Below, piece after piece: positions 319 through 673 of a stretch of DNA of 43,115 nucleotides. The notes beneath the pieces are model-generated. The model made no database searches, was not told where the DNA came from, and was given only the letters and a program-made list of their open reading frames with translations. How positions within the stretch are numbered: the first letter of the stretch is position 1; each line of letters opens with the position of its first letter. The translations under genes and the position numbers were made by a program. Source of the stretch: a virus (taxonomy: Duplodnaviria; Heunggongvirae; Uroviricota; Caudoviricetes); the IMG/VR virus record IMGVR_UViG_2541047802_000010; one strand, written 5' to 3'.

Positions 319-646
319 GAATAGATTCAAGACTACCATGCACATATTTATTTTATCTGTGATGGGATATTCTTCAACACCATTATTGAATGTGAGTAAT
401 AATGACAAACAGATAGATGAAACTAAAGCAGAATTTTTATTTTATGCAGCCATCAGAAAATGATGTCAAAAATGTTCCAATGCTTTAGGTTCATTTTTTG
501 GTAAGCGTCAAACATGCGCGTTCTGGCTGTGCGTAACCGGAACCTGTGCGAGCACGATGTCGATAAGTGAAAAGCATCGTGCTATGAAGGAGGATTCTAT
601 CGATGTGGTCAATGGAAGACGGTGACCAGGGATAGGGCTTATGCAT

Positions 647-673
647 AAAAAATAAGCCCGTGTAAGGGAGATT
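647..673. other. Prophage attL core (27-bp P2-type att core)
   Basis: AAAAAATAAGCCCGTGTAAGGGAGATT is identical to the copy at 37046-37072; integrase gene lies immediately inside. Confidence 0.75.

Follow-up and report, generated by a model that had tools for sequence, protein, structure and literature searches.

What is the short phage-like sequence that lies on the bacterial side of a P2-type prophage at the cyaR gene of Escherichia coli, and does it record an earlier occupation of the same site? We addressed this question in a window of 43,115 nt (IMG/VR record IMGVR_UViG_2541047802_000010; the window is this whole stretch, and positions refer to it). Across the left flank (1-700) it is a 100% match to E. 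coli ATCC 11775, and the prophage itself differs from that of ATCC 11775. The window begins at the ATG of yegR (1-318, + strand), an open reading frame for a 105-aa lipoprotein that is named yegR in matching genomes and whose homologues list Pfam PF27694 (YegR). The P2-type prophage occupies 674-37045, with int at its left end and ogr at its right end, and lies between two identical copies of a 27-nt core (AAAAAATAAGCCCGTGTAAGGGAGATT; attL at 647-673, attR at 37046-37072) that equals the attP core of P2. The cyaR sRNA gene lies at 37049-37134 on the minus strand (Rfam RF00112, 100.7 bits against a gathering score of 47), with yegQ next after it at the right flank, and the attR core covers its terminator; the integration point of P2-type phages is the 3′ terminator of cyaR, and 'cyaR RNA' is already listed among P2 insertion sites (PMC3032704).

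Inside the prophage, the P′ arm (674-787, + strand) is collinear with the P2 annotation and holds a Cox-binding region at about 690-763 and two Int arm-type repeats at about 761-787 (CTGTGGACACTGTGTGGACA), which are collinear with the Int P′ arm of P2. At the other end, ogr (36726-36944, + strand; recognised from its sequence and collinear with P2 ogr) is followed by a rho-independent terminator (36955-36981, + strand; annotated at 24265-24288 in P2) and then by the P arm (36983-37045, + strand), which comprises an Int arm-type site (36983-37010) and an IHF site (about 37012-37045). The int gene (753-1762, − strand) is split into open reading frames at 753-1070 and 1067-1762, and alignment places a 4-nt deletion (GTTT) near 1105 relative to both P2 and the ATCC 11775 prophage. 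The stretch 900-1400 (501 nt, deletion included) is 100% identical in S88, MS7163, N53, and N62, and the S88 annotation describes int as 'frameshifted' with a pseudogene flag. With int broken, self-excision by the present prophage is improbable.

An earlier note on this DNA had pointed to a sequence at about 600-630 that recurs between the ogr terminator and attR, within a reported interval of 319-673. The recurrence is real, and its phage-like part amounts to only about 47 nt (600-646, + strand; hereafter the relic), directly left of the core at 647-673. The relic aligns to the ogr-side arm (36983-37045) through two exact blocks, one of 15 nt (TCGATGTGGTCAATG, 600-614 and 36983-36997) and one of 8 nt (GTGACCAG, 622-629 and 37005-37012). 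A repeat search recovered 595-634 against 36978-37017 (40 nt, 75% ungapped) and, separately, the core plus 8 nt (639-673 against 37038-37072, 94%); these eight core-adjacent bases form an extended core (TTATGCAT, 639-646) that matches the phage at 6/8. The distance from relic to core is 16 nt shorter than in the phage (spacings of 36383 versus 36399). Without the core, the local alignment scored 38, compared with a mean of 16.4 (sd 2.3) and a maximum of 31 in 2000 dinucleotide shuffles; as the shuffle maximum lies below the observed score, the similarity is not due to chance. The likeness thus extends beyond the 27-nt core into the ogr-side arm, and it is homology.

The annotation of P2 indicates what this homology represents. 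In the P2 GenBank record, the stretch matching the relic (TCGATGTGGTCAATGTGTGGACGTGACC) is the Int 'P arm' binding site (24293-24320), which is followed by the IHF site (24324-24357) and the core, and then by the Cox region (24399-24472) and the Int P′ arm (24470-24496). The relic is collinear with the P arm of P2 attP (AF063097) over the entire stretch between the start of the Int P-arm site and the core, and its repeat 1 (TGTGGTCA, 604-611) is identical to that of P2. The arm-type consensus, tgTGGaCa, is the site of the Int N-terminal domain (PMC3448106). Unlike in P2, only one of the two direct repeats of this type survives in the relic, as repeat 2 reads GGAAGACG where P2 has TGTGGACG (GGAAGAC versus TGTGGAC), and the IHF-binding sequence between the repeats and the core has been lost from the window through a 16-nt deletion. 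In further contrast to the P2 arm, the relic sits in the chromosome of prophage-free cells, and is therefore no part of a working attP.

When 480-673 was compared by blastn with 50,697 phage records, only host-flank records, core or extended-core matches in P2-type phages, and weak hits with E values of at least 0.2 were returned. Two records filed as phage deserve mention here. ON470606.1 (vB_EcoM-720R8) contains the host genes yegR, yegS, and gatR and is a prophage with its flank, and AY639599.1 (Phage TP) matches the 3′ half of yegR and the bacterial arm upstream of ogr, as in the K-12 remnant described below; both give misleading 'phage' matches for the bacterial arm. A separate resemblance to the P arm (GTCGATGTGGTCAATGTGTGGACGTGACCAGAAATAAATC) occurs in the FII tail-tube gene of the prophage (31851-31886, + strand; GTCGAGGTGGTCATGCGTGGACGTCAGAAAGAAATC), with a local score of 43 that exceeds the relic's own, the next best among 516 window chunks being 27. 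This motif is coding sequence (VEVVMRGRQKEI) and is also present in the FII gene of P2; it could be a codon coincidence, a candidate internal Int-binding site, or a product of common ancestry.

The direction of descent between phage arm and chromosomal relic can be judged from the other P2-like phages. The terminator, the two repeats, and an AAATCC-T-rich IHF-like box are conserved in Wphi, L-413C, vB_YpM_46, and ENT4, all of which have unrelated cores, so the arm is a property of the phage that is independent of the integration site. The opposite course, in which a P2 ancestor gained the cyaR flank by imprecise excision and the P arm is host-derived, would account for the fact that the homology begins right after the ogr terminator, as an aberrant joining of the ogr end to the left flank would leave host DNA in precisely the interval from ogr to the core. 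We nevertheless consider it very unlikely, because phages that use other cores have the same repeats and IHF-like box, because P2 has the repeat motif in its P′ arm too and the Int N-domain recognises it, and because a P′ arm copy at the far end of the yegR segment, near yegS (see below), is inexplicable by phage capture. Furthermore, none of 120 IMG/VR matches to the relic motif lies within a phage's own P arm.

The age of the relic can be assessed from its distribution. The segment 491-645 of the window is present at a coverage of at least 80% in 5388 of 5426 complete E. coli genomes (99.3%). In the prophage-free strains CFT073 and HUSEC2011, the relic is joined directly to cyaR. K-12 is known to carry a P2 remnant (ogr-D′) at this locus (PMC3032704), and the earlier note had linked the two; the order in K-12 is relic, truncated core fused to the interior of D (D′), ogrK, modern P arm, core, and cyaR. 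K-12 therefore carries both, and as its relic lies to the left of and outside the ogrK remnant, the relic is the older layer and the remnant a separate, younger one. In keeping with this distinction, ogr and D sequences were sought at 319-646 of the window and none was found.

The K-12 remnant (yegZ/D′-ogrK-attR) is nonetheless an instructive comparison, since the locus and the type of event are the same, namely a P2-type prophage shrunk by deletion, and both cases retain the P arm and the right-hand core beside cyaR. The relic differs in being older and far more reduced, without ogr or D, and whereas the K-12 remnant is lineage-specific, the relic is near-universal in E. coli and has a partner attL roughly 1 kb away, by yegS. 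These observations bear on the possibility that an earlier P2-like prophage of this strain, or the ogrK event itself, cleared part of the site not long before the present prophage came in. Partial deletions do occur here, as the D′-ogrK-P arm-core arrangement of K-12 shows (PMC3032704), but such a recent, lineage-specific scar is extremely unlikely given that the relic is present in nearly all complete genomes and in prophage-free strains, that it coexists with the ogrK remnant in K-12, and that it is 25-30% diverged from modern P arms, with derived changes common to several lineages. The suggestion that the right arm beside the core was left there by an older P2-type element thus stands as the best reading, while the idea of a strain-level scar does not.

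Less decayed alleles of the relic support this reading. Escherichia sp. MOD1-EC7003, a member of a cryptic clade, has a 63-nt arm that equals the phage arm in length, with no net indel and 46/63 ungapped identity, and reads ATAAATCCTTCTGTTTCATTG against the phage IHF-site sequence ATAAATCCTTTTATTTCATTG. The IHF-site sequence is retained, as in P2, in the MOD1-EC7003 and Z0117EC0005 alleles, and is deleted (16 nt) in common E. coli. The long P-arm allele of the Z0117EC0005 type is found in about 90 E. coli genomes and a 63-nt intermediate in others; the E. coli alleles, at 71, 63, and 51 nt, make up a deletion series. The long alleles score 48 and 51 against shuffles of about 16.5 ± 2.3, with none of 1000 shuffles reaching them. 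All alleles have the destroyed repeat 2 (GGAAG-) in common, which points to a single origin. Chance similarity beside a shared core, to which only the short length of the match lends any credit, can be given virtually no weight, because neither the 2000 shuffles of the window sequence nor these 1000 reached the observed scores, and because collinearity with the core is kept in four independent allele classes.

Among the 120 IMG/VR matches, which were selected by the relic motif, those bearing a core are attL junctions; seven have no core nearby, of which at least three are unrelated GC-rich contigs. In four of the 120, the phage-type sequence TTACGCGT replaces TTATGCAT beside the core on the bacterial side. 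Six are attL junctions with a different core end and P′ arm (AGGGCGTTT...), which implies that other types of element use the cyaR site as well.

The DNA between yegR and the relic is not phage-like. The 5′ remnant of a second lipoprotein gene lies at 323-433 (+ strand), as identified by tblastn with a 110-aa protein from locus L023 (15/37 identities, E 4e-6); a gene for a lipoprotein of 108-110 aa lies directly after yegR in other genera (L023, L027), and the remnant is not phage-derived. It is contained in a 169-bp segment (322-490) that is missing in K-12 and HUSEC2011 and present in B2-type strains, with 948 genomes covering at least 80% of window 1-700. No recognisable relative of 491-599 was detected. 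A hairpin at 551-583 (+ strand; AGCACGATG / CATCGTGCT) stands 17 nt upstream of the relic, lacks a T-run, drew no terminator prediction, and is conserved across alleles, and the region 540-646 has an RNA fold of -35 kcal/mol (z -3.3). The position of this hairpin is that of the ogr terminator in P2, and it may mark the end of the fossil element's last transcription unit. On the minus strand, 373-497 gave the sole Rfam hit in 280-720, a sub-threshold match to the enterobacterial sRNA STnc410 (21.5 bits against a gathering score of 50, E 0.017 in this small search), which is probably due to chance.

The presence of this broken gene raises the possibility that the relic is itself a coding remnant of the second lipoprotein gene, its likeness to phage being coincidental. 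In Z0117EC0005 the frame across the relic reads RHRAMKGNSIDMVNG, resembling RHRAM-NRTDMLGG of a 108-aa homologue (E 0.006), and its score of 45 is higher than all of 500 shuffles. However, the same comparison is insignificant in the window, where 172 of 500 shuffles reach the score, and in K-12, where 57 of 500 do, and at the DNA level this stretch does not match the homologous genes. A coding origin would also leave the 15/15 phage identity, the collinear IHF-like box, and the fixed distance to the core unexplained, and protein residues 76-110 would need to cross the core into cyaR. We therefore regard it as most unlikely, and retain descent from a phage P arm as our reading of 600-646.

If the relic is the right end of an integrated element, a left end might be recognisable on the other side of yegR. 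No second core copy turned up near yegS in an ungapped search that tolerated up to 10 mismatches, and the left end emerged only by gapped alignment anchored on the native yegS spacer of the contig L166, which is described below. A degenerate core with a P′ arm lies about 85 nt upstream of yegS, approximately 330-255 nt left of the start of the window (L170 1224-1300; L019 2101-2235). ATCC 11775, which shares window 1-700 exactly, has its fossil core starting about 330 nt left of position 1. This fossil attL is the partner of the relic. The evidence is strongest in Z0117EC0005, where the yegS-yegR spacer aligns to window 645-767 over 123 nt with 75.6% identity (E 1.3e-16). Alignment of this spacer from the core through the Cox region to both P′ repeats (ACTGTGGATTCAGCGTGGCA) gives 99/135 identities, and the semi-global score is 44 against 3.6 ± 1.8 in shuffles. 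The fossil attL of CFT073, K-12, and HUSEC2011 has a ~70-nt internal deletion and scores 10-15, which 0-11 of 1000 shuffles reach; taken by itself, the fossil attL is weak in these common alleles (p ~0.005-0.01), so the reading depends on the 23 genomes with the long, Z0117EC0005-type allele. Identity to modern P2 is ~73% for either fossil arm, in agreement with a single age of the two ends.

Outgroup genomes provide the corresponding empty site. A scan of genome contigs with a 24-mer from the cyaR terminator yielded 13 loci; E. albertii, E. fergusonii, and Salmonella were missed because their terminator differs. Only ~70-100 nt separate the cyaR terminator from yegS in Citrobacter koseri (L168), in two Klebsiella-like lineages (L035/L036, L039/L041), and in Kluyvera (L008, L010), and yegR is absent. 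The cyaR-yegS spacer of C. koseri is homologous to the 85 nt proximal to yegS in E. coli, and the position of the fossil attL is exactly that of the cyaR terminator in C. koseri. The related genomes thus join the two flanks that the fossil separates in E. coli, and of the fossil's two cores the left is joined to a P′ arm and the right to a P arm, as integration would orient them. Because cyaR adjoins yegS in Citrobacter, Klebsiella, and Kluyvera, yegR lies inside a fossil P2-type element of ~1 kb. Together with the fossil attL by yegS, this adjacency also means that the seemingly native flank is the carcass of an integrated element. The sequence is, formally, present in prophage-free strains, which the earlier note had held would count against a relic if it were native chromosome there; an ancient relic that is fixed in the species is not contradicted by this. 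The YegR homologues P0043, P0046, P0054, and P0016 (76-88% identity) were rejected as outgroups because they are E. coli assemblies full of errors, and YegQ was rejected as a species marker as it is too conserved in 90% clusters.

Two further loci illustrate the use of this spot by other elements. In L166 (Logan contig SRR10749232_241, 142-2620; probably E. albertii), cdtABC lies directly beside a P2-type attL, with the native yegS spacer, a core copy, and a P2 P′ arm of ~90% identity (score 137) in that order; yegR is absent, and YegS shares 90% identity with the E. coli protein. This locus represents a P2-type prophage or remnant that carries cdt at the cyaR/yegS site, and it resembles the fossil in its integration site and in an attL adjoining the same native yegS spacer. 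It differs in being much younger, with a P′ arm still ~90% identical to modern P2, in carrying cdtABC, and in having no yegR between itself and yegS. In Salmonella enterica (CP019409.1, L167; 66-3000), the gap between cyaR and yegS is occupied by an sseK-family effector gene, a CesT-like gene, and a gene for a 111-aa protein; this different island indicates that the spot downstream of cyaR is a recurrent insertion point across genera.

Taken as a whole, the relic at 600-646 is most probably the decayed P arm of a P2-type attP, left by an ancient and later gutted element at the cyaR terminator. We propose that a P2-type element entered the cyaR terminator in a lineage ancestral to both E. coli and at least one cryptic clade, that it was then gutted to ~1 kb with the loss of everything recognisably phage, and that the fossil became fixed before the diversification of E. 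coli. What remains is, from the left, yegS, ~85 nt of native spacer, the degenerate core and P′ arm of the fossil attL, and yegR, followed by the broken second lipoprotein gene, the hairpin, the fossil P arm, the intact core, and cyaR. The right-hand core is intact because it is the cyaR terminator, and the left-hand core has decayed because it is without function. Modern P2-type phages, including the prophage at 674-37045, recombine with the intact right-hand core, by which the fossil P arm becomes the 'bacterial' arm of attL. The attachment site of P2 today is the right-hand core of the fossil.

A tblastn search with 218 prophage open reading frames and P2 Int against the fossil produced only chance-level matches, and with no phage coding remnant inside it the element is identified by its att arms alone; we infer that it was originally a full phage. 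Both yegR and the neighbouring lipoprotein gene are absent from sequenced phages, and the YegR homologues of other genera occur in unrelated, non-phage chromosomal contexts. Judged only by its position between the two ends, yegR would be cargo of the fossil element.

The relic is probably non-functional and inert today, with one arm repeat left and both repeat 2 and the IHF site gone. It might alternatively be under selection as a working site, either as an Int arm-type site in attB, favouring capture at locI (the preferred P2 site) or modulating excision, or as an element downstream of cyaR, which would be compatible with a fossil origin. The constancy of repeat 1 (ATGTGGTCAATG) in nearly all of the alleles compared, next to an IHF-like region that is deleted or variable, would fit such selection; however, the IMG/VR allele sample was itself chosen by the repeat-1 motif, and in unselected sequences the repeat is altered (TCCATG in S. 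flexneri, TCGATATGG in Z0117EC0005). Moreover, repeat 2 and the IHF site, both of which a functional P arm requires, are destroyed, the perfect 27-nt core suffices to explain site preference, and a promoter scan, a terminator scan, and a permissive Rfam search of 280-720 returned nothing usable. We thus hold selection on the relic to be unlikely. That some influence on the binding of Int, the choice of site, or excision persists would be similarly improbable. A broader proposal, in which locI is the right junction of a fossil prophage, the repeat 35 nt from the core may still bind integrase, and yegR, otherwise regarded as an ordinary core gene of E. coli, is domesticated cargo, seems unlikely as a whole; if true, attB at locI would not be 'naked', and the repeat could add to site preference or alter the efficiency of lysogen excision.

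The use of cyaR as a P2 site and the ogr-D′ remnant of K-12 were known before, and what is modestly new is the older fossil around yegR, which is otherwise ordinary biology. We found no description of such a fossil enclosing yegR in the searchable literature on yegR, ogrK, and cyaR, a body to which two papers that reportedly sequenced P2 att sites, in Gene in 1989 and in the Journal of Bacteriology in 1992, do not belong. The finding implies that what textbooks give as the P2 site in E. coli is no pristine chromosome and instead the only part of an older P2-type element still intact, and that the 27-nt core has been reused repeatedly, as the window and K-12 each stack two generations of elements on it. 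The core copy that serves as sRNA terminator has been preserved and its twin has decayed, and the decay of an att arm can be followed in nature through the alleles of 71, 63, and 51 nt. Any P2 lysogen at cyaR is flanked by 15 + 8 + 35 nt of extra homology and has a putative spare arm-type site in attL, and both could affect prophage stability. Lastly, yegR and the spacer between yegS and cyaR are reassigned to a fossil mobile element fixed in the species, which bears on annotation and on the dating of gene gain in Escherichia.
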